DNA of 45,632 nucleotides. Origin: Candidatus Cloacimonadota bacterium. Lineage in GTDB: Bacteria; Cloacimonadota; Cloacimonadia; Cloacimonadales; TCS61. The position numbers and the translations under genes are program-made. The notes under the pieces are model-generated. The model was not told the origin of the DNA, searched no databases, and saw only the letters and a program-made list of their open reading frames with translations. Shown here piece after piece: positions 20,009 through 42,998 of this stretch; within the stretch, counting starts at the first letter, position 1; each line of letters starts with the position of its first letter. The stretch covers positions 1 to 45,632 of the forward strand of contig JAMOPB010000237.1 of the NCBI GenBank assembly GCA_027064945.1, read 5' to 3'.

Positions 20009-20425
20009 TTAAAGAATTTCAAGTTTAGCTGCAATTTTAGCCGCTAGGTCTGCGCTTTCTTGCACTAAATCTTCTTCTTTAGTTTCTTCAGCTTCGCCAG
20101 CTTCAGGAGCTTCACCAGCTTCAGGAGCTTTTTCACCTTCTTCAGCTTCAACTTCTTCTGCTTTAACTACTTTGTAACCAGCAGCTTCTAGTTGTTTTTT
20201 AAGTTCTTCGAGTTCTTCTTCGCTAGGTACAAATTCATCCATAGCTTCTGTTATGATTTTTTCATAAAGTTTACTAACAGTATCAACTTCTTCTTTAAGA
20301 ATCGCGCCACTTTCTTGAATTACTCTGTGGATTGTGCTATTTAGAGCAGCTGCTGCTAAATCCATAGCTGCTGCAGCACTCGCTTCAGCGATTAAATCTT
20401 CAAAAACGATTACATTTTTTTCCAT
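20009..20425 (-). CDS. acidic Ala/Glu-rich hypothetical protein (138 aa)
   Basis: ORF with AAAGGATATTTAAT before the ATG. N-terminus MEKNVIVFEDLIAEAS. PEAGEAPEAGEA repeat. Confidence 0.5.
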   Translation of the reverse strand: MEKNVIVFEDLIAEASAAAAMDLAAAALNSTIHRVIQESGAILKEEVDTVSKLYEKIITEAMDEFVPSEEELEELKKQLEAAGYKVVKAEEVEAEEGEKAPEAGEAPEAGEAEETKEEDLVQESADLAAKIAAKLEIL

Positions 20426-24493: not shown

Positions 24494-25705
24494 TTAAAAA
24501 GGATTGTTATTTTGAAACTGATTTTTATTGAAATTTGAAGAGCCGAAATTTTTATTGTTTGGTTTGGCGTGTTCTGCTGCTTTACCTTCTTTAAAGAATT
24601 CATTATCACGTCTATTGAGAGCTGGTCTATTTTTACTTTCTTTGCTTATTTGATAAGCAAGATTTCTTAAATCACTGTCTAACTGTTTGCTGAGGTCGTG
24701 TCCGATTCTTACGTATTCCGGATCCTTAGAATTATTAAATGTGTCAATAATTTTTTGAACATTTTCAGAAACTTTGTTTACAACTTCAAGTAATTTATAC
24801 ATATTTTTATCGCGTGCAAGTCTCGCTATGTTGCGGAAAAGCGCCTCATTTAACATACCGCGTTTTAATCCATTTTCGTATACGCCAAACACTTTATCAT
24901 CAACATTACTTGCTTTCATGATTTTATAAAGTGCTTCTAATAATGTGATATAAAATTTAATTATTTTAGAACCTACACATCTCGCATAATCGTATTCTTT
25001 GTGTGAATTTGTAATTTTTTCTATAAATCTTGTAAATTTATTAGATTCTGATGGATTCCAGCCAACGATTTTCTGACATTCGTCAAATAAATCTGCAATT
25101 TCGCGAGCATCAATCATTGATAAAATCTCTTTTTTAGTACCTATACCATATTTATTCAAATCAACAGTAAGGAATTTACCAATTACTCTGCCCGCCATCT
25201 CAAAACCATTGATGATATTCTTTTTATCTTTGTCACTTAATCCTAGTAACACAGTTAATGCAAGAATTGTGGTAACAGCAGCTGGTGCAAAAATGCCTCC
25301 GAGGAAATATCCTGCAGCTCCCGCCAACGAACCTCCTACAACGATACTGCCAACGACAGATTTGATTCCTTCTGAAATTACATCATAAGAAGTGTTTAAT
25401 TTATATTCGATGTCGTATGGAAGTTGTTCATGCTCTGTAATCAATTTATATTTAACATCTAAATATGTTTCTAAAAACAGATGTTCATATATCCAGCTAA
25501 CAATTATTTTTTGTTTATCAGATCTAGTTTTCGCTTCTAAAAACATTTCGTATTCAGGAGACTGGATGAATTCTTTATAAAGGTTATCAACCGGAGGCCT
25601 ATAATCCATGTTTTCAAAAATTGTATTTTCTGATTCGTTAAATTTATTAAAAATTGGTAAATACATTTCATTAAAAATTTTGTATGATAATGTAGATTTA
25701 TTCAT
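24494..25705 (-). CDS. membrane protein with glycine-zipper TM segment (403 aa)
   Basis: VVGSIVVGGSLAGAAGYFLGGIFAPAAVTTILALTVLLGL. AAAGGAAAAATTA before ATG 25705. Confidence 0.5.
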   Translation of the reverse strand: MNKSTLSYKIFNEMYLPIFNKFNESENTIFENMDYRPPVDNLYKEFIQSPEYEMFLEAKTRSDKQKIIVSWIYEHLFLETYLDVKYKLITEHEQLPYDIEYKLNTSYDVISEGIKSVVGSIVVGGSLAGAAGYFLGGIFAPAAVTTILALTVLLGLSDKDKKNIINGFEMAGRVIGKFLTVDLNKYGIGTKKEILSMIDAREIADLFDECQKIVGWNPSESNKFTRFIEKITNSHKEYDYARCVGSKIIKFYITLLEALYKIMKASNVDDKVFGVYENGLKRGMLNEALFRNIARLARDKNMYKLLEVVNKVSENVQKIIDTFNNSKDPEYVRIGHDLSKQLDSDLRNLAYQISKESKNRPALNRRDNEFFKEGKAAEHAKPNNKNFGSSNFNKNQFQNNNPF

Positions 25706-28466: not shown

Positions 28467-29180
28467 ATGAGTTCTCTAATTAATTGGAATAACACAATTG
28501 ATTTTATTAAAATTCAACTCGGAGCTGATGTTAATCAACTCGAAGTTGATGAATACAAAATACTTGATATTATTAAAACTGTCACTATGCCTGAGTTTTG
28601 CCAATATTTTAATTATATAGACAGAATAGATTATCCGAGTGATAAAATAGAATTAGTAACAGAGGCTGAACACAAGCATCGTTATAAAATTATAAATTAT
28701 GAGCGTCAGATATATGAGATTAAAAATGTTTATTTTCCGTCCAACTGGACTGTAGCATATACTGTTTTTGATCAAATTGATGCAACTTCAGCAGCCGTTT
28801 CTAATTATACATATAGTATGGCAGATTCCATGACACCAGTAAGATCATTTCAATTTTTTAGACCAGATATAATTGAATTAACAATACCAATCGGATATTC
28901 AGAGCCTAGTTATTTTACAGTTGAACTTGGCGCTGAATTCTTAAATCCAAATGAAATCGAACCTTCAATGTATTCTGCTTTCAAAAAATTAGCTGCTGCC
29001 GATGTAATTGATTATGTACTATCTTTAAGATCTAAATTTGAACAATTAACTACTCCACAGGGCACTATCAATATGAACTTAAATAGATTAGAGCAAAAAG
29101 CTGAAAGATTGAGATCTGAAGCAATGCAAAAACTCGAAAATACTCAGCCAGATGTGCTCTGGGCATGGGTAAATTCATGA
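28467..29180 (+). CDS. hypothetical virion/baseplate-module protein (237 aa)
   Basis: First gene of the plus-strand operon that contains the spike. AAAAAGGA SD. Confidence 0.5.
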   Translation: MSSLINWNNTIDFIKIQLGADVNQLEVDEYKILDIIKTVTMPEFCQYFNYIDRIDYPSDKIELVTEAEHKHRYKIINYERQIYEIKNVYFPSNWTVAYTVFDQIDATSAAVSNYTYSMADSMTPVRSFQFFRPDIIELTIPIGYSEPSYFTVELGAEFLNPNEIEPSMYSAFKKLAAADVIDYVLSLRSKFEQLTTPQGTINMNLNRLEQKAERLRSEAMQKLENTQPDVLWAWVNS

Positions 29181-29961: not shown

Positions 29962-30003
29962 TCATTTTAATTTCTGAAATGATGTGTTCTCTTATCTGTT
30001 TTT

Positions 30004-30044
30004 AAATAGAGGCCATATATTGCGGCCTCTATTTTTGTTTTTTT
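30004..30044 (+). terminator. intrinsic terminator after 29740-29961
   Basis: Stem aaatagaggcc (30004-30014)/ggcctctattt (30024-30034) followed by ttgttttttt. Confidence 0.8.
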
Positions 30045-30082
30045 CGTCGACCTATATCATAGCAAATATTAAGGAGGACCTT

Positions 30083-30919
30083 TTGAAATTTGATATTTAT
30101 GAAGGCATTGTACTTGATCGCGATGATCCGAAAAAACAAGGTCGATATTATGTATATATTCCTGAATTGCAATTTAACGATCTAACTGATAACCCTCCAA
30201 TTAATAATAAATATTCAGGTGTATGGTGTTATAATTGCGTTGGAAATAATTTTATTAGATACACAGAGGCTGAACTCAGAGATTTTAAAAACACTAACAG
30301 TTATGGCAGTTATATGCCTTTAAAACCTGGTACGCATGTGCTAGTTGGTTTTCCTGAAAATTCAAATAAAACATATTGGGATTCTGGATATATATTAAAT
30401 ATAATTACTTTTGAAAAACCGCCTAACGAAGACCGTGATGATTTTTATTTGATTTATACAACAGATAAAGAATCTTGGGCTTTTATCGATGAGAATGGAG
30501 AACAATTCGCGATTAGTTTTCATAATGGAAAAAGCAATGTATGGGGTAAAGATGATGTTATTCATTTATCCAAAAAAAATGGTACAGTTGCTGAGATTCA
30601 TGATGATCATATAACTTTATTTCACAATTCCGGCAATTATGTACATATAGACGAGAACCAGATAACTGCTAAAATTGGTGGCAGTTTTATTAAATTGTCA
30701 AATGACCATATTTCTATTAAAGCGGAATCTGTTTACATAGAAGGAAGTTCATTGGTTGCTATAGAAGGTGGTGCCGTTCAAATAAATGATGGAGTTACTG
30801 TGCCAGATTCAGCTGACAGTAAATCGGATATAGCAAAACCATCACTCGATGCTATAAAGGAAATAAATGATAAAGATAAAGAATTGCACAGAAAGATTAA
30901 TAATGGAAGAGCAGAATAA
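30083..30919 (+). CDS. baseplate central spike / hub protein (gp5/VgrG-type OB fold plus beta-helix)
   Basis: TTG start at 30083, 5 nt after AAGGAGG. YEGIVLDRDDPKKQGRYYVYIPEL...PLKPGTHVLVGFPENS matches the Phage_base_V/gp5 OB-fold pattern. The C-terminus is repetitive beta-strand (ITLFHNSGNYVHIDENQITAKIGGSFIKLSNDHISIKAESVYIEG). The 33 upstream codons in the ORF track cross a terminator hairpin. Confidence 0.7.
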   Translation: MKFDIYEGIVLDRDDPKKQGRYYVYIPELQFNDLTDNPPINNKYSGVWCYNCVGNNFIRYTEAELRDFKNTNSYGSYMPLKPGTHVLVGFPENSNKTYWDSGYILNIITFEKPPNEDRDDFYLIYTTDKESWAFIDENGEQFAISFHNGKSNVWGKDDVIHLSKKNGTVAEIHDDHITLFHNSGNYVHIDENQITAKIGGSFIKLSNDHISIKAESVYIEGSSLVAIEGGAVQINDGVTVPDSADSKSDIAKPSLDAIKEINDKDKELHRKINNGRAE

Positions 30920-31624: not shown

Positions 31625-31660
31625 GAGACCGCGTCTGCGGTCTCATTTTTTGCTTTTTTT
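31625..31660 (+). terminator. intrinsic terminator of the plus-strand spike operon
   Basis: Stem gagaccgc/gcggtctc with loop gtct, followed by attttttgcttttttt. Confidence 0.85.
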
Positions 31661-31713: not shown

Positions 31714-32190
31714 TTATTTTTGATTAGCTATTATTGTTGGTGATCCGTACAGTTTACCTTTGATATAATTATACGCAGGTCGTGCTGCTGCATTTGCAGC
31801 TCCTGCAGCACCTGCACCGATTGCTGCACCAGCTTTAGCACCCTCACTACCACCTGCAATTGCTCCAATTGCACCACCAACTAGTGCACCAGGCACTGCA
31901 CCATGTAAAGCACGTGAAGCCACATTTTTTACAGTGTAGACATCTCTCATTGTCACATTAGGATCTTTACGCGCTAATGCTCCAATTGCGCCTTCTCTTC
32001 CGTATTCTACTCCAGCTTGAGGTTCTCCAACTTCTCTACCAACTTCTACACCTGTGTTTTTTTCGAAAAATCTCGAAACTGGCACAATAGGTGTTGTAGC
32101 AATAGATGCAAGATCGCTGCTACTTAGCGCGCCTTTGTTAATAGCTTCGCGCGCTTTTTCACTGGCTTCAAATATAATTTTTTCTCTCAT
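31714..32190 (-). CDS. glycine-zipper protein, paralog of 35735-36280
   Basis: GVEYGREGAIGALARKDPNVTMRDVYTVKNVASRA..GALVGGAIGAIAGGSEGAKAGAAIGAGAAGAA..RPAYNYIKGK aligns with the 35735-36280 product. MREKIIFEAS leader. Confidence 0.55.
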   Translation of the reverse strand: MREKIIFEASEKAREAINKGALSSSDLASIATTPIVPVSRFFEKNTGVEVGREVGEPQAGVEYGREGAIGALARKDPNVTMRDVYTVKNVASRALHGAVPGALVGGAIGAIAGGSEGAKAGAAIGAGAAGAANAAARPAYNYIKGKLYGSPTIIANQK

Positions 32191-32196
32191 ATTATG

Positions 32197-32769
32197 TCAT
32201 CCTTTTTTTGGCATCAAATAACAATAAATATCGTGATCACAAATTGCTTCAATATCTTTATCATTTTTTAATTTATTCAACATGTTTTTACCGATTTCTT
32301 CAGCATCCACAAACACAAAATAATTATCTGCTTTAATTTTATCTCTATCATCACCATATGAAGGCATAAGTTTGAAATAACTTGGCGCGTTTATTACAAA
32401 ATCTTTTATTAATTCATATGATTCTTTTTCATTAATAAATCTTGGAAATACTGTTGAAGAATATTTATCATAAAACGTGATTGCATATGGCTTATTTTTA
32501 GGAAACGGCTTACAGTTTGCGCAGTGAAAGTCTTTAGATTGCAAAACAACTGGTTCTGCGTAAGCTACTAGTTTACCGTTTTTTTCAAATGCGTATACGC
32601 CACAACAAGCATCATTTAATTCTCTTAGCACATCATTGATGTTTGCTGATTTCGGCTCATCAGATAATTCATCAAGATGTCTTGACACGTAATTTTTAAA
32701 CGATATAGATTTAGTTGCTGGTTTAATAATAAATTTTAAAGAATTTATTTGTCCCGTTGCCTCCAGCAA
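32197..32769 (-). CDS. Cys-containing hypothetical protein (190 aa, TTG start in track)
   Basis: The ORF is open from the upstream stop. The only in-frame start candidate is TTG 32769, with no clear SD. Confidence 0.4.
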   Translation of the reverse strand: MLEATGQINSLKFIIKPATKSISFKNYVSRHLDELSDEPKSANINDVLRELNDACCGVYAFEKNGKLVAYAEPVVLQSKDFHCANCKPFPKNKPYAITFYDKYSSTVFPRFINEKESYELIKDFVINAPSYFKLMPSYGDDRDKIKADNYFVFVDAEEIGKNMLNKLKNDKDIEAICDHDIYCYLMPKKG

Positions 32770-32811
32770 TAATGCTTTTGCGCGATATGTGATATATTTT
32801 TTATCCGTGTT

Positions 32812-33699
32812 TTATCCTTTATTTAATTTATTTGTTAAATATGCGTACAAACCAACACCGATTAATCCTGTTTTTGTTACAACACCATTCCAAAAAGCAT
32901 GTAATACTTGCGCAATCAATGTACCGCGATCTTCGATTGCTTGTTTTATTTTATAATTATTCGGGTTTTTTGAATATAATTCGATAAATTGCGATTGCAA
33001 TTGTGTTTTTTTGTGAAAATATGTTGTGGATAAGTGAAATACAAACGAAAACAATCTCACAATAACTAGAAACAATACAGGAAAACCGAGTGCGGCAAAC
33101 TGCATAATATATGAAAGAGCTTCAGCGCCTGCTAAAGCAGAGGTCATTAAAAAACCTTTATACTGTTTAACGGCTGCACGTTTAAAGATTTCTTCAGTGA
33201 ACGGCGCACATAAAATTGCACCAATATATAACCCCATAGGTCCGAATAACGATACGCACGTAGTCATCACAACAGTATTTAATATATAAATAAAAATAAA
33301 CATCACCGCAAGTATTAATGCATCTTTTGCTTGAATATTTTTTAATTCTTCTTTGAATTCATTGATAATAAAATCAAAAGTGAATATTTTATCCAGATCT
33401 TGATATTTGCCTTGCTCGATATTTTTAATTATTTGATCTATTTTGCGTTTATCGATTCCTTGTTTGTCTAAAAACTGTATTATTCTCTGTTGTTGAGAAT
33501 AATACATGCGTTTCACACGTTCAATATCTTTTTCAGACTGAAATGCTTTGAAAAGAGAATCATATATTTTTTCTAAAAATGCGTTAATCGGATTGCTGAG
33601 TTTAGCAAATTTTTCTGTGATATCAAAATCAGATGCACGCGATTTAACCGAAGCTGTTTTAGCAATAGCTACAGCTTCAGTTATTATCATTTCGCGCAT
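32812..33699 (-). CDS. CPBP (CAAX protease / Abi, PF02517-type) intramembrane protease candidate
   Basis: Multi-TM protein with PFTEEIFKR (EExxxR motif 1), a mid-TM His (FSFVFH, approximate FxxxH) and LHAFWNG (HxxxN motif 3) in the expected order. MREMIITEAV leader. Confidence 0.55.
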   Translation of the reverse strand: MREMIITEAVAIAKTASVKSRASDFDITEKFAKLSNPINAFLEKIYDSLFKAFQSEKDIERVKRMYYSQQQRIIQFLDKQGIDKRKIDQIIKNIEQGKYQDLDKIFTFDFIINEFKEELKNIQAKDALILAVMFIFIYILNTVVMTTCVSLFGPMGLYIGAILCAPFTEEIFKRAAVKQYKGFLMTSALAGAEALSYIMQFAALGFPVLFLVIVRLFSFVFHLSTTYFHKKTQLQSQFIELYSKNPNNYKIKQAIEDRGTLIAQVLHAFWNGVVTKTGLIGVGLYAYLTNKLNKG

Positions 33700-33701
33700 T
33701 A

Positions 33702-34214
33702 TTAACCTTTTTTAATAATTTTTCTAGGATCTGTCTTAATTGCTTCTTTAACTGCTTTAAGAAATTCTTGTTTTGCTTGATCGTTAGGGACACCATTTTT
33801 AATTAATTTAAATATCTCATATAATCTTGATATTGCAAATATTGCAGCAAGCGGTGTCATTATTGGCGCTGCAATCAATGTTACGCCGGGTACAAACCCA
33901 AGTCCGATAACAACTGCAATAACATCAATTATAAAGAAAAGTACAGCCATAGCAAATTGAGCGAAATAATCACTTTTAGACATTAGATGTTGATCACTTT
34001 TTTCAAGTAAATCTTCAACTTTTTCTCCCCAAGCAACTATTTTTTCCCACTGCTTTGTATTAATTTTACCTTGTTTATGCATTTTTTCAGCCCAATCATA
34101 AACTTCTGTGTATATATCTACAAGTTTATTATGGTTGGTCATAATTTGGTGTTCTAGATCTTGAGAAACTGATTCTTCTATTATTTGCATTGTTAAACAA
34201 CTTAATTCTGCCAT
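33702..34214 (-). CDS. membrane protein (170 aa, two TM helices)
   Basis: FAMAVLFFIIDVIAVVIGLGFVPGVTLIAAPIMTPLAAIFAI. N-terminal region contains MQIIEES. Confidence 0.5.
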   Translation of the reverse strand: MAELSCLTMQIIEESVSQDLEHQIMTNHNKLVDIYTEVYDWAEKMHKQGKINTKQWEKIVAWGEKVEDLLEKSDQHLMSKSDYFAQFAMAVLFFIIDVIAVVIGLGFVPGVTLIAAPIMTPLAAIFAISRLYEIFKLIKNGVPNDQAKQEFLKAVKEAIKTDPRKIIKKG

Positions 34215-34215
34215 A

Positions 34216-34740
34216 TTAATTTCCTTTTCTTTTATTTACTAGCGGACCGCTCCCGTCATACTGGGTACCAATTGCTTTGATGATTTCACGCTCATATTCG
34301 CGTAAATCTTTTGGATTATCAAATGTTTTTATAATAACTATCCAGTTATTTTTATATTCATCTAGGTTTTTTGGCATCAGATTATCAGGATTTCCGCTTT
34401 GCTTATTTTGTTCGATTTGTCTTTCAAGTTCTTGAAAAAATTTCTTTTTGTATTGATTTTGTGAATCATCGATATTTCGGACAAAATTGTTTATATGATG
34501 ATTCATACGGTACTGCAGGCTGTTTTCTAGTTTACCTACATATACTGGTAAGTATGCTGATTTAACAGTTTGCTGTTTACCACAACACTGAAAATTATAT
34601 TCATAATCACCACTATGGAAAGGATCTAAATACATATAAATAGCATATTTATGTTTGCGATAATCGAAACGAGCAACTCTCGGGCTAACTTTGTCATATT
34701 TAAGATTTGTGGTTTTGTAGCTGTCTGATGTTATTAGCAT
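34216..34740 (-). CDS. GIY-YIG homing endonuclease
   Basis: KYAIYMYLDP (GIY-like), PVYVGK (YIG), YRMNHH (conserved Arg/His), REYEREIIKAIG (catalytic Glu) and LVN, in I-TevI-like order. Confidence 0.7.
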   Translation of the reverse strand: MLITSDSYKTTNLKYDKVSPRVARFDYRKHKYAIYMYLDPFHSGDYEYNFQCCGKQQTVKSAYLPVYVGKLENSLQYRMNHHINNFVRNIDDSQNQYKKKFFQELERQIEQNKQSGNPDNLMPKNLDEYKNNWIVIIKTFDNPKDLREYEREIIKAIGTQYDGSGPLVNKRKGN

Positions 34741-35084
34741 TTTAACTTCTTCCTTAATTCTGTAAGCTGTTTGCTGTTTATCTTGCTGCAGATCGAATTT
34801 TCTTTTGCACGGATAAATAATTCGATAAATTGTCTAAAATCTTCGCGAGTTGCTTTTTGGCGATAACTACGTTTAAAACTTGTATGAAACATTTTATGAC
34901 ATTCATCACATAAACATATACCATTTTCCGGGTCGAAGCGTTTTTCTGGAAAATAAGTTGCGTGGTCTAAATGATGCGCGTGTCTATTTTTAATCGATCC
35001 ACAAATTTGACATACCTTATCACGTCTAATCACGGTGGCGCGCCAAATACGGTAATCGCGGGTTCGACGCCAGTTTTTGCTCAT
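34734..35084 (-). CDS. HNH homing endonuclease
   Basis: WRATVIRRDKVCQICGS..HAHHLDH....ENGICLCDECHKMFH is a classic phage HNH pattern with CxxC...CxxC and H-N-H. Confidence 0.9.
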   Translation of the reverse strand: MSKNWRRTRDYRIWRATVIRRDKVCQICGSIKNRHAHHLDHATYFPEKRFDPENGICLCDECHKMFHTSFKRSYRQKATREDFRQFIELFIRAKENSICSKINSKQLTELRKKLKC

Positions 35085-35326
35085 TTGTTTTTCTTTTTAT
35101 CAGATTTTGTGATTTTATTAGTCAGATAGATTGAACCTAGTGCTCCGCCTGCTGCTCCTAATCCTGCTAATTTAACATGAAGTGCAGGCATAGTTAAATC
35201 GCCTGCTAATGTATCAGCTAGCGCGTGACCAGCAACCGCGCCACCTGCAAGTCCCGCACCTAACATGGCTAACCTTGCTTTTGGATTTTCTTTCAATATT
35301 TTTCTTGCTTTTTCCGCAATACTCAT
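35081..35326 (-). CDS. small glycine-zipper membrane protein (81 aa)
   Basis: LAMLGAGLAGGAVAGHALA....LAGLGAAGGALGSIYL. MSIAEKARKIL leader. Lys-rich C-terminus. Confidence 0.55.
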   Translation of the reverse strand: MSIAEKARKILKENPKARLAMLGAGLAGGAVAGHALADTLAGDLTMPALHVKLAGLGAAGGALGSIYLTNKITKSDKKKNK

Positions 35327-35327
35327 T

Positions 35328-35735
35328 TTATAATCCTTTGCATTCGCGTTCTAAATCATGAATTTCTTTTTTAAATCTCTCGATAATTTGATCTAAAGAA
35401 ACTTTTTTAGCTTCGTCGTAATGTATTTTTACTTTTTGACCTTTTATTTCAGGGTTATCAATTGCATATTTGATATCCTGATCACATTTACTTAAATATT
35501 TTTTAACACTTGCTTTGAATATATCCATCGCGATTGCATAAGGAATTTTTTTACATCTGGTAGATTTTGCAGCTAGTAATTCAGCACGGCGCCAAAATAA
35601 AGCCATCAAGCTTTCAGGTACATTGTATTTTTTTGCCCAAGACTTAATAACATTAGAATTTGTTTCAAATCCACGGACTACCGGACAACGTGCTTCAAAT
35701 ATCAATTTAGCTTTTTCTGCAATTAGATCTCTCAT
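35328..35735 (-). CDS. hypothetical protein (135 aa)
   Basis: Coupled ORF. MRDLIAEKAKLIFEA leader. Confidence 0.5.
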   Translation of the reverse strand: MRDLIAEKAKLIFEARCPVVRGFETNSNVIKSWAKKYNVPESLMALFWRRAELLAAKSTRCKKIPYAIAMDIFKASVKKYLSKCDQDIKYAIDNPEIKGQKVKIHYDEAKKVSLDQIIERFKKEIHDLERECKGL

Positions 35736-36280
35736 TAGCTTACCCCGTATTTCTTTTTCATATTTTCAAGTTCAGCTTCTTTCTTGCCGCGCCAATAATT
35801 ATATCCTGGTTTGATTAAAGCACGACCAGCTGTTTTTAATAAACCAGCACCTGCCCCCAGCAGTGCACCTCCTCCAACACCAATCAACAAATTTAACCCT
35901 TCATTGCCTCTAGCATGACTAGCTAATGCTGCTCCTGTAGCTGCTCCTGCTGCAGCACCACCAACTACGTCTTTTGTTAAACCTTGTTTTGCACGCGCTA
36001 TAATATTTTTTCTCGTATAAACATCTGTCCATTTGATATTTTTATCTTTTGCAGCTAACGCCCCTACTGCACCTTCTCTTTCATATTTTTCACCAATTTG
36101 CTCGTGCCCAACTTTACGTCCAGCAAGAATTGAATTTATACGATTATACTCAGAACCATGAAACCAATCAGAACTGCGTTTGGCTGTTTCATGTTCGGCG
36201 TACTTATTTATTAAAGCACGTGCTTTTTGTTTTGCACGTTCCCTGGCTTCTTTTATACTGTCTGATGTACTACGAGCCAT
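35735..36280 (-). CDS. glycine-zipper protein, paralog of 31714-32190
   Basis: GEKYEREGAVGALAAKDKNIKWTDVYTRKNIIARA..VVGGAAAGAATGAALA..IGVGGGALLGAGAGLL..KPGYNYWRGK. Confidence 0.55.
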   Translation of the reverse strand: MARSTSDSIKEARERAKQKARALINKYAEHETAKRSSDWFHGSEYNRINSILAGRKVGHEQIGEKYEREGAVGALAAKDKNIKWTDVYTRKNIIARAKQGLTKDVVGGAAAGAATGAALASHARGNEGLNLLIGVGGGALLGAGAGLLKTAGRALIKPGYNYWRGKKEAELENMKKKYGVS

Positions 36281-36283
36281 CTT

Positions 36284-37303
36284 TTATACTCTTACTTTTG
36301 ATTTATAATTTAAAACGATTTTTTCCATGTTGAGCTGAATTTCGCGATCGATTGGCCCCATGTTAAATAAAATAGAATGATGCGCAGATATTACAGCCCA
36401 TGCTACAAAATAATCATAAGTACCGTAGATCATTGATAAAACATTTGTTCCAAATCTTTTTGCAATTGCGTTATTTAAAGCTATTGGTGTGATGTTAATT
36501 ACTTTGATCATACCAAGTAAAGCCGGTAATTTATCCATAGAATTCAAAGAGGTAATTCCGTTTTTTGCTAATAAATCTGCTATCTCAGATCCATATTTTT
36601 TTGCAATGTTATGTAATACCTCACGAGGTTTCAAATTTGTAAATGCCACTGTGAATATATAATCGATTGCTGCGTTATATATTTTTTTATCATGGATTTG
36701 CATCATGCTTCCGATGCTTATTTCAAGAATTTTTTTAAATAATTCTATACTTAAATCAAAAAGTGTAACACTGGAACCTCTGTCAATTTCAGCAACTATA
36801 TATCTTAGAAATGAAAAATAAATAGCTTCAGCAATTCTCGGATAATCGAGCATAGCGGCTAAAGTTTCTTGTAATTCCTCACTTTCATTTTTAAGATTCA
36901 CAACTTTTTCAATCGAAGCATCATCAATTCTTTTTTGTAGAGTTATAATTTCTTTTGAGATTTTTTCTAATTTTTTAATTATATTAATAATATCAGTAGC
37001 TGTGTCTGGCGAACAGCGTACTATGTCTGGTATAATGCCTGCTAGTAAATTATGATCACCAACATAAATAGAAAAAACCGGAACTTCGCTACCTGCAGCT
37101 GTCGCGCTGTATCCTAAAAATATTTTATCGTTATCTAACAATTTACGTACTGTTCTGGTGTATGCGTTGGCACCTAGTTTCTGCAACGTTATATCCATAT
37201 TTTTATAGAATCTATTGTAAAGTATTTTAGAAGGTTGTTTCAAGATTCTTGCAATAGATTTTTCACTGCTTTCAAAAAATGGAGTTAAAACTGTTTTTTG
37301 CAT
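36284..37303 (-). CDS. hypothetical protein (339 aa, helical)
   Basis: ORF in the operon. No domain recognised. Confidence 0.5.
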   Translation of the reverse strand: MQKTVLTPFFESSEKSIARILKQPSKILYNRFYKNMDITLQKLGANAYTRTVRKLLDNDKIFLGYSATAAGSEVPVFSIYVGDHNLLAGIIPDIVRCSPDTATDIINIIKKLEKISKEIITLQKRIDDASIEKVVNLKNESEELQETLAAMLDYPRIAEAIYFSFLRYIVAEIDRGSSVTLFDLSIELFKKILEISIGSMMQIHDKKIYNAAIDYIFTVAFTNLKPREVLHNIAKKYGSEIADLLAKNGITSLNSMDKLPALLGMIKVINITPIALNNAIAKRFGTNVLSMIYGTYDYFVAWAVISAHHSILFNMGPIDREIQLNMEKIVLNYKSKVRV

Positions 37304-37317
37304 GTGGATCCTTTAGA

Positions 37318-37659
37318 TTAAATTTTGCTATTTAATAATTTTTGTATATAAAGTTTATCTGGAATTAGCATCTGATCACCGATATTTTCGCGCGTAAAAT
37401 TAAAAAATGTTGGACAATCATTAATAAACATTATTATATTTGTAAGAGCTAACGATTGAAAATAATCCCATGCCACTAAATCAGGGCGCATATCGTATCT
37501 CGAAGAAGAAAATTCTATTTTATTTGAATTTTCTTTTAATTCTTTTAAATTTAAGTTAAAAATATTTTCAAGAGGCTCAGATGTTAATTGTTCATATATT
37601 GATTCATCGAAATCGTCCAATTCAGTAGGAATGAAAGGTGTATAGCGTTTTATTTCCAT
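37318..37659 (-). CDS. hypothetical protein (113 aa), faint LysM/tail-protein-X-like C-terminus
   Basis: YDMRPDLVAWDYFQS...ENIGDQMLIP is weakly reminiscent of P2 gpX-type LysM. Not sufficient for a call. Confidence 0.35.
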   Translation of the reverse strand: MEIKRYTPFIPTELDDFDESIYEQLTSEPLENIFNLNLKELKENSNKIEFSSSRYDMRPDLVAWDYFQSLALTNIIMFINDCPTFFNFTRENIGDQMLIPDKLYIQKLLNSKI

Positions 37660-37668
37660 TTTTTTCTC

Positions 37669-38247
37669 CTATACTGGGTTAAACGGCTGGTGTGGTTGGT
37701 GTTCTAATTTTCTAGCTATCGGAACACCGTTTTCTTTATAAAGATAAGTGCGCACTTTCTTTACCCGTTTATCCATAATTGAATTGTCAACTTTTACTTT
37801 GGGATAAATATCATTTTTAGTTTTAAAACGATCTTTTTGATCTACAATACTTTTGCTTTTGCGTTTAGGATTATAAGGATTAGCAACATTTCTGATCATT
37901 TCAGCGCTTTGCCCCATTTGATAAGGAGATTCATACATACTTTCTTTAATTATTTTTTGAGCTTTTTGCTTGATTGTTTTGCGATTAATTGGAAGTATTG
38001 ATGAAGGATTTAAATCGTTTTTTTGCAATTCTATTTCTGCATCTGGTTCACCATCAGAATCTATATCAAGTTCTAATTCGATTTCTTCAGGAGCTTTAAG
38101 TTGGTTTAATGACAGTTGTGCGCCTCGTTTAATATTTTGAGTTAAATTGCGTGCTTGGTTTGTGATTACAGTTTTAGTTCCTGTCATAATTTTAGCACCA
38201 CTTGTTATCGAGTTTAATATTGATTTATTATTATCGCCCATATACAT
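37669..38247 (-). CDS. hypothetical protein (192 aa, basic)
   Basis: Coupled ORF (1-nt overlap at 38247). Confidence 0.5.
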   Translation of the reverse strand: MYMGDNNKSILNSITSGAKIMTGTKTVITNQARNLTQNIKRGAQLSLNQLKAPEEIELELDIDSDGEPDAEIELQKNDLNPSSILPINRKTIKQKAQKIIKESMYESPYQMGQSAEMIRNVANPYNPKRKSKSIVDQKDRFKTKNDIYPKVKVDNSIMDKRVKKVRTYLYKENGVPIARKLEHQPHQPFNPV

Positions 38248-39146
38248 TATTCTGCCTTTTCGATTTCTGTATCATTATTTGTTTCATCATTTTTTTCTAG
38301 CTCTTCACCAACTTGTTCTTCTGTAGCATCTCCGGCAAAATCTGGGTGTGCTTCTTTATCTACTTTATAAGGACCGTAATGAGCTACTTCGGTTTCGTCC
38401 CCATTGAGATCTGCAACTTTAACAATAACAGATAATGATAACGCTCGTACCCAGTAATCTGCATCTACTTTCATTAGCATATATAAAAATGAATCTTGTA
38501 ATGTGAAACTCATATTTATTGAATGTGAATCACTGTTTTTATCTTGATTAAGTGAAATTGATTCACATTTCATAATCGGTGTTGAGACGCATTTAGCAAA
38601 CAGATCATAGTTACTAGCATCATCTTTCATTTGAGCAAATATATTTATTGCATTATCCGCAGCAGGATCATATCCTTCAAGTATATTTTCAGGTAAATAA
38701 AGAAAATAATCGTATTCAAAATCGTAATAATATTTACCCTCATGAGGAAAATACTCACTGTAATTATGAAAAAAATCTAACAATTGCGCACCAGTTTCAA
38801 AGTTAACTGTAATATCGATACCAATATTGTACCTATTGGTTAATCCGTATATTTCAAATTTATCCAATACGCTTGCTATTGGGAAAGCGTTAGGAAATTG
38901 TATCAAATCTGCAGCATTTGTACCGACAGACATGTTTTGAGCAAGAGGATATGTAAATTGTTTTTGAATATTATTAATGTTGATAATGCCTTTTGGGAAT
39001 GGTTGCGGATTTCTGTGAAGTTTGATAGAATCAAAGGTTTTAGAATTATAATTAAAATCCCATTGGCTAATTGGTAATAATGGTGAAGCTGATTGAATAG
39101 CTGCAGCCATACCTCGCATTAAAGCATAATATTGTGTGTGTATCAT
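38247..39146 (-). CDS. hypothetical virion-type protein (299 aa), first gene of the minus-strand operon next to array R
   Basis: AAAGGACGAAGACT-ATG. GCCCCAATGATTAGCA element (39184-39199) upstream. Acidic C-terminal tail. Confidence 0.5.
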   Translation of the reverse strand: MIHTQYYALMRGMAAAIQSASPLLPISQWDFNYNSKTFDSIKLHRNPQPFPKGIININNIQKQFTYPLAQNMSVGTNAADLIQFPNAFPIASVLDKFEIYGLTNRYNIGIDITVNFETGAQLLDFFHNYSEYFPHEGKYYYDFEYDYFLYLPENILEGYDPAADNAINIFAQMKDDASNYDLFAKCVSTPIMKCESISLNQDKNSDSHSINMSFTLQDSFLYMLMKVDADYWVRALSLSVIVKVADLNGDETEVAHYGPYKVDKEAHPDFAGDATEEQVGEELEKNDETNNDTEIEKAE

Positions 39147-39183
39147 AGTCTTCGTCCTTTGATCAATTGCCTTTTATTTAAAA

Positions 39184-39199
39184 TGCTAATCATTGGGGC
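39184..39199 (-). promoter_or_regulatory. GCCCCAATSATTAGCA element upstream of 38247-39146
   Basis: The minus strand reads gaaGCCCCAATGATTAGCAttttaaataaaaggcaattgatcaaaggacgaagactATG. Confidence 0.35.
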
Positions 39200-39223
39200 T
39201 TCTCAATATTTTTATATTTTTAA

Positions 39224-39235
39224 GATAGCATACTA
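39224..39235 (+). promoter_or_regulatory. degenerate GATAG-cATAcTA motif at the left edge of array R
   Basis: taagatagcatactagaaaaca. Same orientation as the array units. Two mismatches to the motif. Confidence 0.2.
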
Positions 39236-39383
39236 GAAAACAATTCACAGTGAACCGTCCAGACCGGGATGATATCTAGAAAAAAGTTTTTCTGCATCTA
39301 GGTTCTGCCAACTGTAACAAGCTATTAGAAAGGTTGTTATTTTAAAACAACAAACTGAAAAACTAGTTTGGTCGTCTAGACTA

Positions 39384-39454
39384 GTTAGATAACTTCCTTT
39401 TGGAAGTTATCTAACAGGCCATCTCATTGTTACGACTTCATCGTAACAATGAGA
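39384..39454. repeat. double-hairpin module (array R copy 1)
   Basis: gttagataacttcc-tttt-ggaagttatctaac and tctcattgttAcga-cttca-tcgTaacaatgaga, both perfect 14-bp stems. Confidence 0.9.
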
Positions 39455-39696
39455 TCAGACCGGGATGATACCTAGAAAAAAGTTTTTCTGCATCTAGGTT
39501 CTGCCAACTGTAACAAGCTATTAGAAAGGTTGTTATTTTAAAACAGTAAACTGAAAAACTAATTTGGATGATCAGACCGGGATGATACCTAGAAAAAAGT
39601 TTTTCTGCATCTAGGTTCTGCCAACTGTAACAAGCTATTAGAAAGGTTGTTATTTTAAAACTGCAAACTGAAAAACTAGTTTGGACGATCAGACTA

Positions 39697-39767
39697 GTTA
39701 GATAACTTCCAAAAGGAAGTTATCTAACAGGCCGTCTCATTGTTGCGACTTCATCGCAACAATGAGA
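39697..39767. repeat. double-hairpin module (array R copy 2)
   Basis: gttagataacttcc-aaaa-ggaagttatctaac and tctcattgttGcga-cttca-tcgCaacaatgaga. Flanked by 8-nt direct repeats gatcagac at 39687-39694 and 39766-39773. Confidence 0.9.
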
Positions 39768-40056
39768 TCAGACCGGGATGATATCTAGAAAAAAGTTTTT
39801 CTGCATCTAGGTTCTGCCAACTGTAACAAGCTATTAGAAAGGTTGTTATTTTAAAACTGCAAACTGAAAAACTAGTTTGGACGATCAGACCGGGATGATA
39901 TCTAGAAAAAAGTTTTTCTGCATCTAGGTTCTGCCAACTGTAACAAGCTATTAGAAAGGTTGATTTTTAATATCAGATAATTTGTCAAATTTAAAAAAGA
40001 ACTGGGAGAAAATAAACACCAATTTCTATATATTCTTTAATAATTAAAATAAGTTA

Positions 40057-40067
40057 GATAGATATTA
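40057..40067 (+). promoter_or_regulatory. GATAGATATTA motif, instance 2
   Basis: agatagatattataataagaaaaataaaa, about 47 nt upstream of the rod hairpin at 40114. About 30 nt are similar to instance 1, with 2 indels. Confidence 0.35.
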
Positions 40068-40113
40068 TAATAAGAAAAATAAAAAAATAAATAAAATAAA
40101 TAAAATAATTTTG

Positions 40114-40208
40114 CCTCGAAGCTGGTTACAGAGCCTAGGGGCTGGGAGAGAGGCGACCGCGCGGCGCGTACTCTCTCAGTCTCGCGGGCTGCTGAGCCAG
40201 CTTCGAGG
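40114..40208 (+). other. 95-nt GC-rich rod-like hairpin in the 5' leader of the plus-strand block (processing site, attenuator or ncRNA candidate)
   Basis: Outer stem cctcgaagctgg/ccagcttcgagg (12 bp). Inner stem ctg..gagagag (40142-40152)/ctctctcag (40171-40179). A-rich tract upstream and ttatttatttttt downstream. Confidence 0.7.
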
Positions 40209-40240
40209 GATCGTTATTTATTTTTTAAAGGAGAAAAAAA

Positions 40241-40372
40241 ATGAAAATTAAAAAACGCGATTGGAATATCGTAGCCATAGCTCGTGGCGAAATTAATGCA
40301 CGCCCAAAAGTAGTGCATTCTAAGAAAAAATATTCACGCAAATTAAAACATAAAAAGCGTGAATATTTCTAA
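40241..40372 (+). CDS. 43-aa highly basic peptide (MKIKKRDWNIVAIARGEINARPKVVHSKKKYSRKLKHKKREYF), speculative ArfA-like tail
   Basis: Not in the ORF track because it is under 60 aa. AAAGGAG 8 nt upstream of ATG 40241. The C-terminal K/R tail resembles KGKGSYxRKxKH of ArfA-type ribosome rescue factors (from memory). Internal 7-bp hairpin at 40295-40319. Confidence 0.4.
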   Translation: MKIKKRDWNIVAIARGEINARPKVVHSKKKYSRKLKHKKREYF

Positions 40373-40482
40373 TTTCTATTTTAAAATTTATCTTTTAAGA
40401 TTAATATATAGAAATTATATATTGAAGGAGACCAGTATTTTGGCTCCAAAAAACAAAAAAACAAATCAAAAAAGGAGAACAC

Positions 40483-41295: not shown

Positions 41296-42636
41296 ATGAG
41301 TTTAAAAATTGATTTTTCCCTTTACGAGATCGATCTTCCTGTAGTGACTTCTTCCAAAATTTTTGCAAATAATAAAAATGAGTATCATGAAGAAGGATTA
41401 TATTCGCAGAAAATATTTGGACCGGTTAAAAATTACGAATGCAAATGTGGTAAGTTAAAAGGTAAATATTATGCAGGTCAAAGATGTGAAGATTGCGGAG
41501 TGCTTTGTGATAGTAATGATTTGCGAATGAAAACATTTGCGCAAATAAATTTACCATCTGATATCTGGGTTGTATTTCCACCTTTAAAACATGTGTTACA
41601 TAAGATCTTTAGCAAAAGAGCAGTTGATAAGATCATGACTTTTGATCCGCATGTGTATGAAGTACATGACTATTTTATATACGATTTAAATGATGCAACT
41701 CTTGTTAATGTGAATAATTTGATAAATGAGGATGAAATTAAAGCAAAAATTTCAGATCAAGCAAAAGAAGAACTGAATATTGATGAACTAGAAAAACTGA
41801 GAGCAGAATTTGTTAATAAATGGGTTTCTGAAAATCTTAATCCAGAGAGGTACTTAATTGATTTTAAAATTTATTCTATAATAAATCTGAAACATTTATT
41901 TGACTATTTGTATGAAAATCATTGGGAAATATTTGAGAAGAAACAAGTTGGTAATCGCGATATAGTTAAATTTGCTTTTGTGAATAAAATACCAGTGACT
42001 CCACCAGATACAAGACCTGTTATTAAGATAGCAAAAAACAGATTTAGTGTTAATGATATTACTAAATCCTATAGTGAAATTTTGAAAAATCTTGAACATA
42101 AATTCATGGATGATATTTATTTACAGATACAAGATGAAACCGAGCGTAATATATATCTTGCAAATGCTGCTAAAAAATTCCAGCGTTCAGTTGACGATAT
42201 TTATAAATTCGCACAAGAAAATCAGCTAGGCGATAAAGAATCCATTTTAAGAAACTCTATTCTTGGAAAAACAGTTGAATTTAGTGGAAGAACTGTCGTA
42301 ACATGCGGTGCAAATGTTCCACCTTATATGATCTCAATTCCTAGAGAATCTGCAAAAGTATTGTTTATTCTCGAAGTGCTAAATTATCTTGTAAATAATG
42401 ATAATGATATTTTAGATATTGATGATATTGCTTCTTTAATGCAATTAATTACGAACAACATTGAGGATGCAGAATTAAAAATTGATGATGATGTATTTGA
42501 TGAAATTTATCAGAAAATTAGACCGCAGCTGCGTGTTATGTTTGAAAGACCTCCAACATTGTTTATGTATAATGACAGCACATTTATTCTAGATGAGCTA
42601 TTTGAAAATAAATTTAAAATGAAGGAAGAACTATGA
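41296..42636 (+). CDS. phage multisubunit RNA polymerase beta-prime, N-terminal half
   Basis: IFGPVKNYECKCGKLKGKYYAGQRCEDCGVLC (beta-prime zinc motif), IPVTPPDTRPV, LRNSILGKTVEFSGRTVV (NLLGKRVDYSGRSV equivalent). It ends at ERPPTLFMYNDSTFILDELFENK ([22 protein letters not shown] equivalent). Confidence 0.9.
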   Translation: MSLKIDFSLYEIDLPVVTSSKIFANNKNEYHEEGLYSQKIFGPVKNYECKCGKLKGKYYAGQRCEDCGVLCDSNDLRMKTFAQINLPSDIWVVFPPLKHVLHKIFSKRAVDKIMTFDPHVYEVHDYFIYDLNDATLVNVNNLINEDEIKAKISDQAKEELNIDELEKLRAEFVNKWVSENLNPERYLIDFKIYSIINLKHLFDYLYENHWEIFEKKQVGNRDIVKFAFVNKIPVTPPDTRPVIKIAKNRFSVNDITKSYSEILKNLEHKFMDDIYLQIQDETERNIYLANAAKKFQRSVDDIYKFAQENQLGDKESILRNSILGKTVEFSGRTVVTCGANVPPYMISIPRESAKVLFILEVLNYLVNNDNDILDIDDIASLMQLITNNIEDAELKIDDDVFDEIYQKIRPQLRVMFERPPTLFMYNDSTFILDELFENKFKMKEEL

Positions 42637-42998
42637 TGACTTTAAAAATAATACTTGCAATTGTTTTTTTTGTTATTTTCTGGATAATTCCTAGTTTACT
42701 AGGTACTTGGATGCTTTTGAGAATTCTTAAAAAAGATTTTTTACCTGTAATCACAAAGTTGAATATTAAAGAGGATGGGCTATCTTTAGCTGATTTAATT
42801 TTTTTAAATATTTTTGTGTTTAGTGTATTATTTGTATTGTTTTTAACGTGGATTCCAGCTGTAAATTTTGTAATGTTATGGTCATTTTTTGATTACAGTG
42901 GCGATTTGAATTTAGATAAAATGTACATTATTAAACCGCGTGATAAGCAAACTAATTCTAATTCAGATTCAGAATATGATGGAATTATTTGTGAATGA
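42633..42998 (+). CDS. 121-aa membrane protein encoded between the two beta-prime halves
   Basis: ATGA overlap with the beta-prime N stop. GAAGGAAG SD. Two or three hydrophobic helices (ILAIVFFVIFWIIPSLLGTWMLL; IFLNIFVFSVLFVLFLTWIPAV). Confidence 0.55.
   Translation: MMTLKIILAIVFFVIFWIIPSLLGTWMLLRILKKDFLPVITKLNIKEDGLSLADLIFLNIFVFSVLFVLFLTWIPAVNFVMLWSFFDYSGDLNLDKMYIIKPRDKQTNSNSDSEYDGIICE

Follow-up and report, generated by a model that had tools for sequence, protein, structure and literature searches.

The nine minus-strand open reading frames (ORFs) that fill positions 31714–36280 of contig JAMOPB010000237.1 (assembly GCA_027064945.1, deposited as Candidatus Cloacimonadota bacterium; hereafter 'the window', which means the whole 45,632-nt stretch) form the hypervariable distal end of an operon of late virion genes in an AT-rich jumbo phage that has not been cultured. 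Our preferred interpretation, held tentatively and with slightly less than even confidence, is that this cluster encodes proteins that are loaded into the virion, processed by a protease and ejected to act on the host membrane. The proteins would follow a shared plan: an N-terminal tag of the form hydrophobic-hydrophobic-x-Glu, a basic or helical linker and a C-terminal membrane-inserting element, the last of these a zipper hairpin in two paralogs (A and B) and an 81-aa protein, a hydrophobic hairpin in a 170-aa protein and a PrsW-type domain in a 295-aa protein. The tag would be this lineage's counterpart of the T4 capsid-targeting sequence (CTS) combined with a prohead-protease site, steering its carriers into the assembling head or the head/tail channel and being cut off after Glu. 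Once mature, the proteins would exit together with the DNA and enter the host envelope. There the zippers may assemble into an oligomeric conduit or reshape the membrane, and the PrsW-like protease may cut a membrane substrate of host or phage, while homing endonucleases (HNH, possibly also GIY-YIG) and recombination would keep the cassette in flux. We infer cleavage at the tag, packaging, ejection, insertion into the membrane from outside and a substrate for the protease because unrelated proteins carry the same x-Glu-ended leader and membrane segments, because the locus is hypervariable and its members dispensable, because the phage has a T4-type terminase and a multisubunit RNA polymerase (msRNAP), and because the tag recurs on and within scaffold-like proteins beside that terminase. 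A first-pass annotation of the sequence had listed an ejected pore- or channel-forming set with a shared leader among several options, and it is this option that the evidence favours.

Defined as [ILVMF][ILVMFAT]xE[ASGNKE] within the first 12 residues, the tag was present in five of the seven non-nuclease cluster proteins (paralog B, the PrsW-like protein and the proteins of 135, 81 and 170 aa), as well as in the products of 18842–19456, 19574–19993 and 20009–20425, and in no other listed protein of the window. With a slash marking the position after the glutamate, the leaders read IIFE/A, IITE/A, LIAE/K, IIEE/S, (S)IAE/K and IIHE/S. Codons within the tag varied between genes (AGA versus CGC, TTT versus ACT); the tag is therefore conserved as a peptide and not as a DNA repeat, and we rejected an origin of the leader as a DNA repeat or recombination artefact. 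Genes that have been swapped into the locus in related phages were tagged too (MEQIIEE/R, MTLLQE/S, MELLHE/S, MINRNLIIQE/A and MKRKIIE/K). The shared leader noted in the first-pass annotation is real; it is sharp as a motif, but modest as overall N-terminal similarity, which over the first 25 residues was only somewhat above background within the cluster (permutation p = 0.01).

Tagged, hypervariable ejection-protein loci are already known as a kind from large myoviruses. The prohead proteases of T4, phiKZ, 201phi2-1 and SPN3US cleave after Glu, and T4 internal proteins and gp24 carry capsid-targeting propeptides of 10–20 residues (PMC5694885); T4 internal proteins are very diverse, the CTS excepted (PMC3012670). 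In SPN3US, gp53 and gp54 have an identical 15-residue N-terminus containing xE sites, and gp47, a head ejection protein that undergoes processing, has a transmembrane helix at the start of its mature form and occupies a hypervariable genomic position at which related phages carry highly diverged genes (PMC5694885). The cluster resembles the T4 internal proteins (IPI, IPII, IPIII and Alt, with their CTS and gp21 cleavage) in a leader of ~5–13 residues that ends in hydrophobic-x-Glu, in unrelated proteins sharing just that leader, in a hypervariable and non-essential locus and in a T4-type large terminase. However, the T4 proteins are small, soluble and basic, whereas most proteins of the cluster terminate in a predicted membrane-inserting hairpin and one would be a polytopic protease. 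The two sets share no sequence homology. The head ejection proteins of the giant msRNAP phages SPN3US and phiKZ (gp47, gp53 and gp54; phiKZ gp93 and inner-body paralogs) likewise form paralog families, with propeptides removed after Glu as we propose for the cluster, and SPN3US gp47 adds the transmembrane start of its mature form and the hypervariable position (PMC5694885). Their motif, (A/S/G)-x-E on propeptides often >100 aa long, differs from the hydrophobic-x-E of the cluster and its leaders of ~5–13 aa, and Pfam and PHROGs searches of the cluster proteins found neither PF12699 nor other homology to SPN3US or phiKZ. What is new here is the glycine-zipper hairpin family, the tagged PrsW-like protease and a tag that co-varies between neighbours.

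A link between the tag and head assembly is suggested by three tagged minus-strand genes outside the cluster. All three lie beside the T4-like large terminase. Two of them, 19574–19993 and 20009–20425, encode small acidic or Ala-rich helical proteins, in which the density of [ILV]xE peaks at 5.8%, compared with 2.1% in the window background. The 139-aa product of 19574–19993 has VIVE/N and ILEE/A sites and a KAKDFVVKNKGKL plus zipper module followed by apolipoprotein-like amphipathic repeats, and the acidic, Ala-rich helical 138-aa product of 20009–20425 has five tag-like motifs (LIAE/A, VIQE/S, ILKE/E, IITE/A and LVQE/S). In T4, scaffold and core proteins likewise undergo cleavage at several such positions. 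From their composition and position, and because dense tag-like sites are expected in substrates of a Glu-specific prohead protease, we regard both as candidate scaffold or prohead-core proteins. The third gene, 18842–19456, encodes a tagged zipper protein of 204 aa (MEIIHE/SIVQKAKEFVSKHKGKL, then the zipper) whose N-terminal 36 residues match a 186-aa protein of the related contig L004 (BLASTP E = 1e-5) and whose N-terminal module recurs in the in-cluster 183–186-aa genes of relatives (alignment A5). A KAxEFVxKxKGKL plus zipper module is common to 18842–19456, 19574–19993 and these in-interval genes, so that the zipper family is divided between the terminase-proximal locus and the cluster.

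Within the cluster, the zipper family is represented by paralogs A (35735–36280, 181 aa) and B (31714–32190, 158 aa), both on the minus strand, and their relationship, proposed in the first-pass annotation, was borne out by BLASTP (E = 3e-16, 34% identity over 155 aa). A has a basic helical N-region, the core YEREGAVGALAAKDKNIKWTDVYTRKNI, a two-segment Gly/Ala zipper hairpin and the basic tail PGYNYWRGK; B carries the tag MREKIIFE/A, the same core, a zipper hairpin and the tail PAYNYIKGK. The motifs quoted in that annotation, Y(G/E)REGAxGALAxKD...DVYTxKN, the Gly/Ala zipper and P(A/G)YNY(I/W)xGK, are all present and are conserved in nine further members found among 5.8 billion protein clusters, all from the clade of this phage. 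In the resulting 11-member alignment the core, which is not of low complexity, reads G(R/E)xxGxxxxGxxYGREGAxGAxAxKDxNxxxxDVYTxKNxxxRA; a pair of Gly/Ala zipper segments and a tail of the form P(A/G)xN(Y/F)xxGK come after it. The second paralog pair that had also been claimed did not appear in an all-versus-all BLAST at E below 0.03. Profile matches to the zippers were generic: Gly-zipper_YMGG (PF13441) matched four of the 11 family members (best E = 3.2e-6), although not the window's A and B at E = 0.1, plain as the zipper pattern is in their sequences, and there were weak matches to YiaD, TagQ and TraT. The outer-membrane glycine-zipper lipoproteins (YMGG, Rick_17kDa and SlyB-type) do have a comparable two-segment Gly/Ala zipper, but A and B lack a signal peptide or lipobox, and their YGREGAxGA...DVYTxKN core is foreign to those families.

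The 295-aa product of 32812–33699 (minus strand) carries the tag MREMIITE/A, a helical soluble domain at residues 27–119 and five long helices at residues 124–294. Its family had been given as a CPBP-type intramembrane protease; the likeness to a glutamate/histidine-type intramembrane protease holds, but the profile evidence points to PrsW (PF13367) and not to PF02517. The window protein scored 22.1 bits with Pfam PrsW (E = 1.2e-4), just under the gathering cutoff of 23.5; PF02517 (CPBP/Abi) matched neither it at E ≤ 0.1 nor any of 40 homologs at E ≤ 0.01. A word-indexed search left the protein an orphan, and tblastn with it and with homologs P0012, P0026 and P0128 matched no deposited phage genome. 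A HMMER scan with residues 115–295 returned 113 representative homologs (best E = 4e-13), nearly all of 230–370 aa with the matched domain in the C-terminal half, and of the top 40, 35 matched PF13367 (E ≤ 0.01, best 1.1e-9), with no hits to further protease families. In the window protein the motifs are PFTEEIFKR (E169, E170, K173), RLFSFVFH (R215, H222) and HAFWN (H267, N271), and E169, E170, K173, E193, R215, H222, H267 and N271 were invariant or at least 90% conserved across the 40 aligned sequences (alignment A3). Because the residues of EExxK, E193, FxxxH and HxxxN are invariant or nearly so among homologs, the predicted catalytic apparatus is under selection.

An alignment-based AlphaFold2 model of this protein was confident (predicted local distance difference test, pLDDT, 89.3; predicted template modelling score 0.84), with the tag and following residues (1–25) floppy, compared with a pLDDT of 43 from the single sequence. 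The model shows five long helices and hydropathy gives three or four strongly hydrophobic segments, and Foldseek of the alignment-based model against PDB and BFVD gave non-significant all-helical matches alone. PrsW proteins have roughly eight transmembrane helices, and the cellular enzyme is a site-1 protease whose target is a regulator anchored in the membrane (PMC3482391). Compared with the PrsW family (B. subtilis PrsW; PF13367; MEROPS M82), the window protein shares the profile relationship and the EExxK/R, FxxxH and HxxxN motifs, but has ~5 helices in place of ~8, a 120-aa N-terminal helical domain, the tag and a phage genome as its location. It is best described, from profile and motifs, as a reduced, N-terminally extended, phage-borne PrsW member or close relative and not as a CPBP/Abi protein.

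This assignment bears directly on the toxin-immunity framing of the first-pass annotation, in which the zipper peptides would be membrane toxins of a bacteriocin-like module and a CPBP/Abi-type protein their immunity or maturation factor. CPBP/Abi proteins reportedly act as immunity proteins for some class II bacteriocins, and the cluster does resemble such systems in placing GxxxG-rich peptides beside a glutamate/histidine intramembrane protease-like protein of the same broad superfamily and Glu-Glu/His motif logic; a weak Bacteriocin_IIc match was also seen, at E = 0.057 and below the cutoff, which stems from Gly/Ala composition. We nevertheless consider a toxin-immunity module extremely unlikely: PF02517 is unmatched in the protein and in the 40 homologs, the leaders end in x-Glu and none is a double-glycine leader, and searches of the cluster with Pfam, PHROGs, NCBIfam and PADLOC found no export transporter or other bacteriocin export and maturation machinery, no quorum-sensing gene and no PADLOC match. 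The zipper proteins, at 81–204 aa with large cytoplasmic-type domains, are also unlike secreted peptides, and the supposed immunity gene has been lost in the related contigs L005, L006 and L017 with zipper genes kept, a loss that would be lethal were the zippers toxins.

Comparison of the interval from A to B across six related metagenomic contigs revealed six different gene contents. In the window the order is A, 135-aa gene, 81-aa gene, HNH gene, 174-aa gene, 170-aa gene, PrsW-like gene, 190-aa gene and B. L017, whose A is 86% identical, has A, 135, HNH, 174 and 170 and then only remnants of the PrsW-like gene and B: the first 153 nt of the former (with ATG changed to ATT), ~80 nt of filler sequence and, from the latter, the last 35 nt, the deletion corresponding to window positions 33546–31749 and removing most of the PrsW-like gene, the 190-aa gene and nearly all of B. 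L017 also lacks the 81-aa gene. L005 and L006 (82–87% DNA identity) carry an IS200/IS605 pair, a different 116-aa zipper protein, the 174-aa gene, a 300-nt gap and B, without the 170-aa, PrsW-like and 190-aa genes. The more distant L004 and L008 (~70%) have A, a 175-aa gene, a tagged 186-aa double-zipper protein and B, and L020 has A, HNH, a tagged 114-aa zipper protein, a 175-aa gene, tagged zipper proteins of 183 and 158 aa, and B. As relatives exchange or lack genes, and incoming genes retain the tag, the locus forms a cassette array in which single members, including the protease and B, are dispensable. The protease is not its hub, contrary to the first-pass description of a module centred on it, and we rejected the PrsW-like gene as an obligatory partner of the zipper genes since it is deleted in L005, L006 and L017. 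Such hypervariability and dispensability fit accessory host-interaction cargo. The IS200/IS605 pair (a Y1 transposase and a TnpB/Cas12f-like gene) occupies 65–1706 of L005 and 71–1700 of L006, at the position held by A in the window.

This turnover raises the question of whether the genes have any function in common, or are unrelated accessory genes gathered by homing endonucleases and recombination, with zipper and tag reflecting low-complexity, AT-rich composition. Two endonuclease-type genes in the cluster, the IS200/IS605 pair in relatives and the extreme rate of gene exchange would all suit such a history, as would the modest overall N-terminal similarity (p = 0.01) and the generic nature of the Pfam zipper matches. 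It is nonetheless a distinctly unlikely explanation. A and B are genuine paralogs, their conserved core is not of low complexity, the tag is position-specific and codon-independent, and across the wider PrsW-like family the pairing of a tagged protease with tagged membrane proteins returns in four other contigs of three lineages, with the motif concentrated at residues 1–45.

These last results come from the window and six contigs with PrsW-like homologs, five of which were readable, the sixth (L009, 1.6 kb) showing the start of one neighbour. Tagged PrsW-like genes lay beside genes for tagged small membrane proteins in four of these contigs, which belong to three further lineages, and the tag sequences differ: YLxYLxE in L010 and L014, M(G/S)xYG in L011 and L015. 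L010 is a 272.6-kb IMG/VR viral genome with msRNAP genes in which the PrsW-like gene sits among four glycine-zipper proteins, one of them starting MYLALMIEE/S, with YLxxLxE and LIEE leaders shared. In L011 a PrsW-like protein beginning MGLYGEVF is followed by a membrane-hairpin protein beginning MGLYGNVW; an adjoining block encodes two soluble proteins starting MGIYG and MGIYS and a 594-aa homolog (2e-21) of gp214 from the msRNAP jumbo phage AR9 of Bacillus. The annotation of AR9 gp214 is 'virion structural protein', and a transmembrane segment is obvious in it; that of AR9 gp213 reads 'virion structural protein, transmembrane domain'. Together these two proteins (L021, AR9 182065–184377) indicate that transmembrane segments do occur in virion proteins. 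The PrsW-like gene of L013 has sugar-biosynthesis and QueC genes as neighbours. Among 105 full-length family representatives, a tag-like motif fell within residues 1–45 in 67, residues 46–90 in 20 and residues 91–135 in nine; Y[ILMV]xx[ILMV] occurred within the first 25 residues in 43 and in the next two spans in nine and one, and 16 of the 105 started with M-x(1-3)-[YF]-G. Given the recurrence in four contigs and this N-terminal enrichment, a lineage-specific tag common to the PrsW-like protein and adjacent small membrane proteins is recurrent and not a product of chance. Homology between the window's 170-aa protein and the proteins encoded beside the PrsW-like genes of L011 and L014 was considered and rejected, there being no similarity. 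Two zipper proteins next to the PrsW-like homolog of L010 (11779–13286) have EF-hand/dockerin-like calcium-binding loops (DxNxDGxxD) between their N- and C-terminal zippers.

The same neighbourhoods also supply the case for a different site of action, in which the cluster would encode late inner-membrane proteins working inside the infected cell, whether holin/antiholin-like or factors for superinfection exclusion or for remodelling the envelope. Regulation or processing of the hairpin proteins, or cleavage of a host envelope protein, would fall to the PrsW-like protease, and the tag would be a cytoplasmic regulatory or processing peptide. We regard this, the main alternative, as possible but on balance doubtful. 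In L015 the PrsW-like gene (MSVYG...) directly follows a 536-aa endolysin (phrog_20388, 5e-84; Phage_lysozyme2, Amidase_2, LysM) and precedes a homolog of the L011 partner (MSIYG...; 1e-17). In L014 it lies three genes past an SLT endolysin (1.9e-15) and an overlapping pair with weak matches to Rz-like spanins (2e-4 and 8e-3), and the cassette is flanked by tagged transmembrane proteins; the transmembrane neighbours start MEILNQYLTYLNE and MSNKYFDYLHE, and the PrsW-like protein MRQQITLEYYLDIMQVHENLMLYE/G. Cellular PrsW, too, acts on a membrane-anchored regulator (PMC3482391).

Features of the cluster proteins themselves speak to this alternative. The 81-aa double glycine-zipper hairpin (35081–35326, minus strand; tag MSIAE/K, tail KKKNK) has a classic small-holin shape, with basic N- and C-terminal flanks (+4 and +5) around an acidic loop (−2). 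It is like class II holins and pinholins in its two Gly-rich transmembrane segments, N-in/C-in charges and Lys-rich C-tail. Every hairpin, moreover, has basic flanks and a neutral or acidic loop, following the positive-inside rule for cytoplasmic insertion, and the strongly hydrophobic helices of the PrsW-like and 170-aa proteins (Kyte-Doolittle 2.4–2.9) fit ordinary membrane integration. Unlike class II holins, however, A and B have N-terminal domains of ~100 aa, and many paralogous holin-like genes that are freely gained and lost, B included, would be unusual for a lysis system. PHROG and family searches of the window cluster and its surroundings turned up neither an endolysin or spanin nor a recognised holin, lysis neighbours were present in just two of the five other contigs, and action from the inner membrane leaves the tag on soluble scaffold-like proteins and on the proteins of the L011 virion block unexplained.

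Loading into the virion, which we continue to prefer, must be set against several observations. No proteomic, structural or homology link ties any cluster gene to a known virion protein, and no prohead protease, major capsid protein or portal was identified in the window, a contig look-up for a 537-aa protein also returning nothing; with no prohead protease found there, the specificity of processing after Glu is an assumption. The tag motif was defined post hoc, after inspection of the data, and its Glu is not conserved in family A, other members having SLDS or SLAS. Strongly hydrophobic helices such as those of the PrsW-like and 170-aa proteins normally insert co-translationally into the membrane of the producing cell, which is awkward for loading into a capsid, the charge pattern of the hairpins is the topology expected for insertion from the cytoplasmic side, and two of the five readable contigs place PrsW-like homologs beside endolysin- or spanin-like genes. 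On the other side, the zipper segments are only weakly hydrophobic (Kyte-Doolittle 1.5–1.6), as would be expected of proteins that stay soluble before insertion, which supports ejection. A more specific and bolder form of this proposal, in which the virion loads an intramembrane metalloprotease and a changeable zipper set via the cleavable tag and injects them into the host inner membrane, we consider unlikely. In that form, delivery would come ahead of or with the DNA, the zippers would construct or remodel the entry membrane, as a channel or as a vesicle like the early-infection vesicle of nucleus-forming phages, and the target of the protease would be either a pro-protein of the phage or a sensor or defence protein anchored in a host membrane.

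The genomic setting is consistent with a virion-related role. The window has a GC content of 31%, split msRNAP genes at 91–1704, 41296–42636 and 43017–45011, and a large terminase of the T4 gp17 type at 16989–18773 (~26% identity to T4-like phages). A gp5-like spike N-domain is encoded at 29984–30919, the product of 28467–29180 is a virion structural protein according to PHROGs (2.5e-15) with a faint precomputed T4 gp13-like Pfam match, and the 113-aa product of 37318–37659 has a weak baseplate-wedge match (phrog_7145, E = 3.5e-4). On these polymerase, terminase, spike, virion-structural and baseplate-wedge-like matches the window is part of an uncultured jumbo-type myovirus genome. The cluster directly continues the operon 38247–39146, 37669–38247, 37318–37659 and 36284–37303 and converges with the operon that holds the gp13-like and gp5-like spike genes; between the two convergent operons a terminator scan found a GC-rich hairpin, GAGACCGCGTCTGCGGTCTC, followed by a T-run at 31625–31644, which marks the 3′ end of the cluster operon. 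Both the baseplate-like gene within the operon and the spike operon facing it count in favour of virion proteins.

They could also be read as pointing to delivery by the tail, with the proteins travelling in the tail lumen or baseplate hub alongside the tape-measure or spike, the tag serving as a docking peptide and an inner-membrane channel forming after contraction. Glycine-zipper segments are typical of tape-measure proteins, and two segments of this type, Gly-rich and hydrophobic (residues 171–195 and 954–972), occur in a 1379-aa protein at 12201–16340 that has no family matches and is plausibly the tape-measure protein. B weakly matched the C-terminal region of the P22 gp7 ejection protein (E = 0.013), alongside other generic zipper matches, and the range for such matches was 0.007–0.013. 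Tail delivery is still a very unlikely reading, as the Glu-ended motifs repeated in scaffold-like proteins beside the terminase point to head maturation and the baseplate assignment depends on the single match at E = 3.5e-4. Homology of A and B to P22 gp7 was rejected, because just two of the 11 family members match, at E ~0.007, over the Gly/Ala region.

All ORFs of the cluster stand at the coordinates given in the first-pass annotation, and they are packed as closely as it had reported, with spacings between neighbouring ORFs of 3, −1, 1, −4, −7, 1, 2, 42 and 6 nt (all within −7 to +42 nt). All lie on the minus strand, as does the conserved 339-aa protein at 36284–37303 directly upstream of A, in the same late operon as 37318–37659. 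A directly follows the 339-aa gene in every relative whose contig spans that junction, and the order 299-192-113-339-A is kept in L003, L004, L008 and L017. Hydropathy and sequence upheld the first-pass descriptions of the 81-aa double zipper, the 170-aa hairpin, the Cys-containing 190-aa protein and a further zipper protein at 24494–25705 (minus strand, 403 aa), in which a Gly-rich double transmembrane region spans residues 113–156 and the N-terminal tag is absent.

The 135-aa soluble protein (35328–35735; four Cys) begins MRDLIAE/KAKLIFE/A, with the tag motif at residues 4 and 11, and has no family match in Pfam, PHROGs, NCBIfam or PADLOC; L017 has a conserved 135-aa ORF at the corresponding position, and L018 matches this stretch at the DNA level. 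The tagged 170-aa protein (33702–34214) starts MAELSCLTMQIIE/ES and continues with an N-region that is acidic and helical, then a two-helix hairpin (residues 85–131) that is strongly hydrophobic (Kyte-Doolittle peak 2.86), and a basic tail; its gene is kept in L017 and missing from L005 and L006. The untagged, soluble 190-aa protein with six Cys (32197–32769) likewise has no match in the four family databases, and its gene is lost together with the PrsW-like gene in relatives. The sole start codon available to this ORF is a TTG without a Shine-Dalgarno sequence, and its true start and expression are uncertain. Within it, in the region 32197–32815, a GGAGG lies 11 nt ahead of an ATA codon.

Two genes are nuclease-like. 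The 116-aa product of 34734–35084, with motifs CxxC...HH...N...CxxC...H, matched Pfam HNH_2 (PF13391) at 25.5 bits against a cutoff of 21 and 20 PHROG families, mostly HNH, down to 2e-10, and is likely a homing endonuclease. In the conserved 174-aa product of 34216–34740, GIY-YIG-like motifs (AIY...YVG...R..H...E...N) can be read by eye, and residues 130–173 weakly match PHROG 314 (homing endonuclease; E = 0.006); Pfam gave no match and a PDB profile search was empty. It is possibly a Seg-like GIY-YIG endonuclease, judging from these motifs. At 74–93% identity to the copies of relatives, compared with just 33–64% for A and B in more distant relatives, its conservation fits a mobile or strongly constrained gene. 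The first-pass statement that no cluster protein has a recognisable phage function holds in that profile, tblastn and structure searches were negative or generic, although it had missed the HNH gene and the possible GIY-YIG gene. PHROGs gave no known-function match for any cluster protein except the HNH endonuclease, searches of Pfam, NCBIfam, PADLOC, PDB and BFVD were negative or generic, and those of PADLOC and NCBIfam returned just generic zipper-lipoprotein noise. Searching PDB by sequence and by profile, for alignments A2, A3 and A4 as well as for three candidate head proteins, was uninformative.

Neither the DNA of the cluster region nor, by tblastn, A, the PrsW-like protein and the 339-aa protein matched any of 50,697 deposited phage records, searches of deposited phages with the 521-aa and 866-aa neighbour proteins had no match, and scans of IMG/VR found no relatives except the 272-kb contig that carries P0017. 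One related contig is explicitly labelled as coming from a hydrothermal-vent metagenome, and the others are metagenome assemblies. Elsewhere in the window, a 313-bp tandem repeat at 39260–39970 (2.3 copies, 94% identity, nested 117-bp period) sits within the long divergent intergenic region 39147–40482. A European Nucleotide Archive contig otherwise equal to the window departs from it at 39285, inside the repeat, the repeat unit is also found at the ends of related contigs L005 and L017, and a 66-kb contig and its relatives break off at it, so that the repeat is an assembly or recombination breakpoint; it is possibly also a regulatory or origin-like element. Between two pieces of the RNA-polymerase beta-prime gene, 42633–42998 codes for a protein of 121 aa in which two helices are very hydrophobic.

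For two open questions about giant phages, their passage across the inner membrane and the roles of the many proteins that they inject, this locus offers a defined candidate set: the tag would predict which proteins are loaded and processed, and the zipper hairpins could form the conduit. Alongside them stands a PrsW-like protease whose motifs are intact across many uncultured jumbo-phage-like contigs. Were an injected protease confirmed in the virion, it would be the first virion-delivered intramembrane protease, and the tagged PrsW-like proteins, with 113 representative clusters, would be a new and widespread phage protein family. Should the proteins work inside the cell instead, as lysis or exclusion factors, an intramembrane protease family that is specific to phages and has a leader co-varying with that of its neighbours would still be new to phage biology. 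In either case, the tag would provide a practical handle for annotating the dark matter of jumbo-phage genomes.

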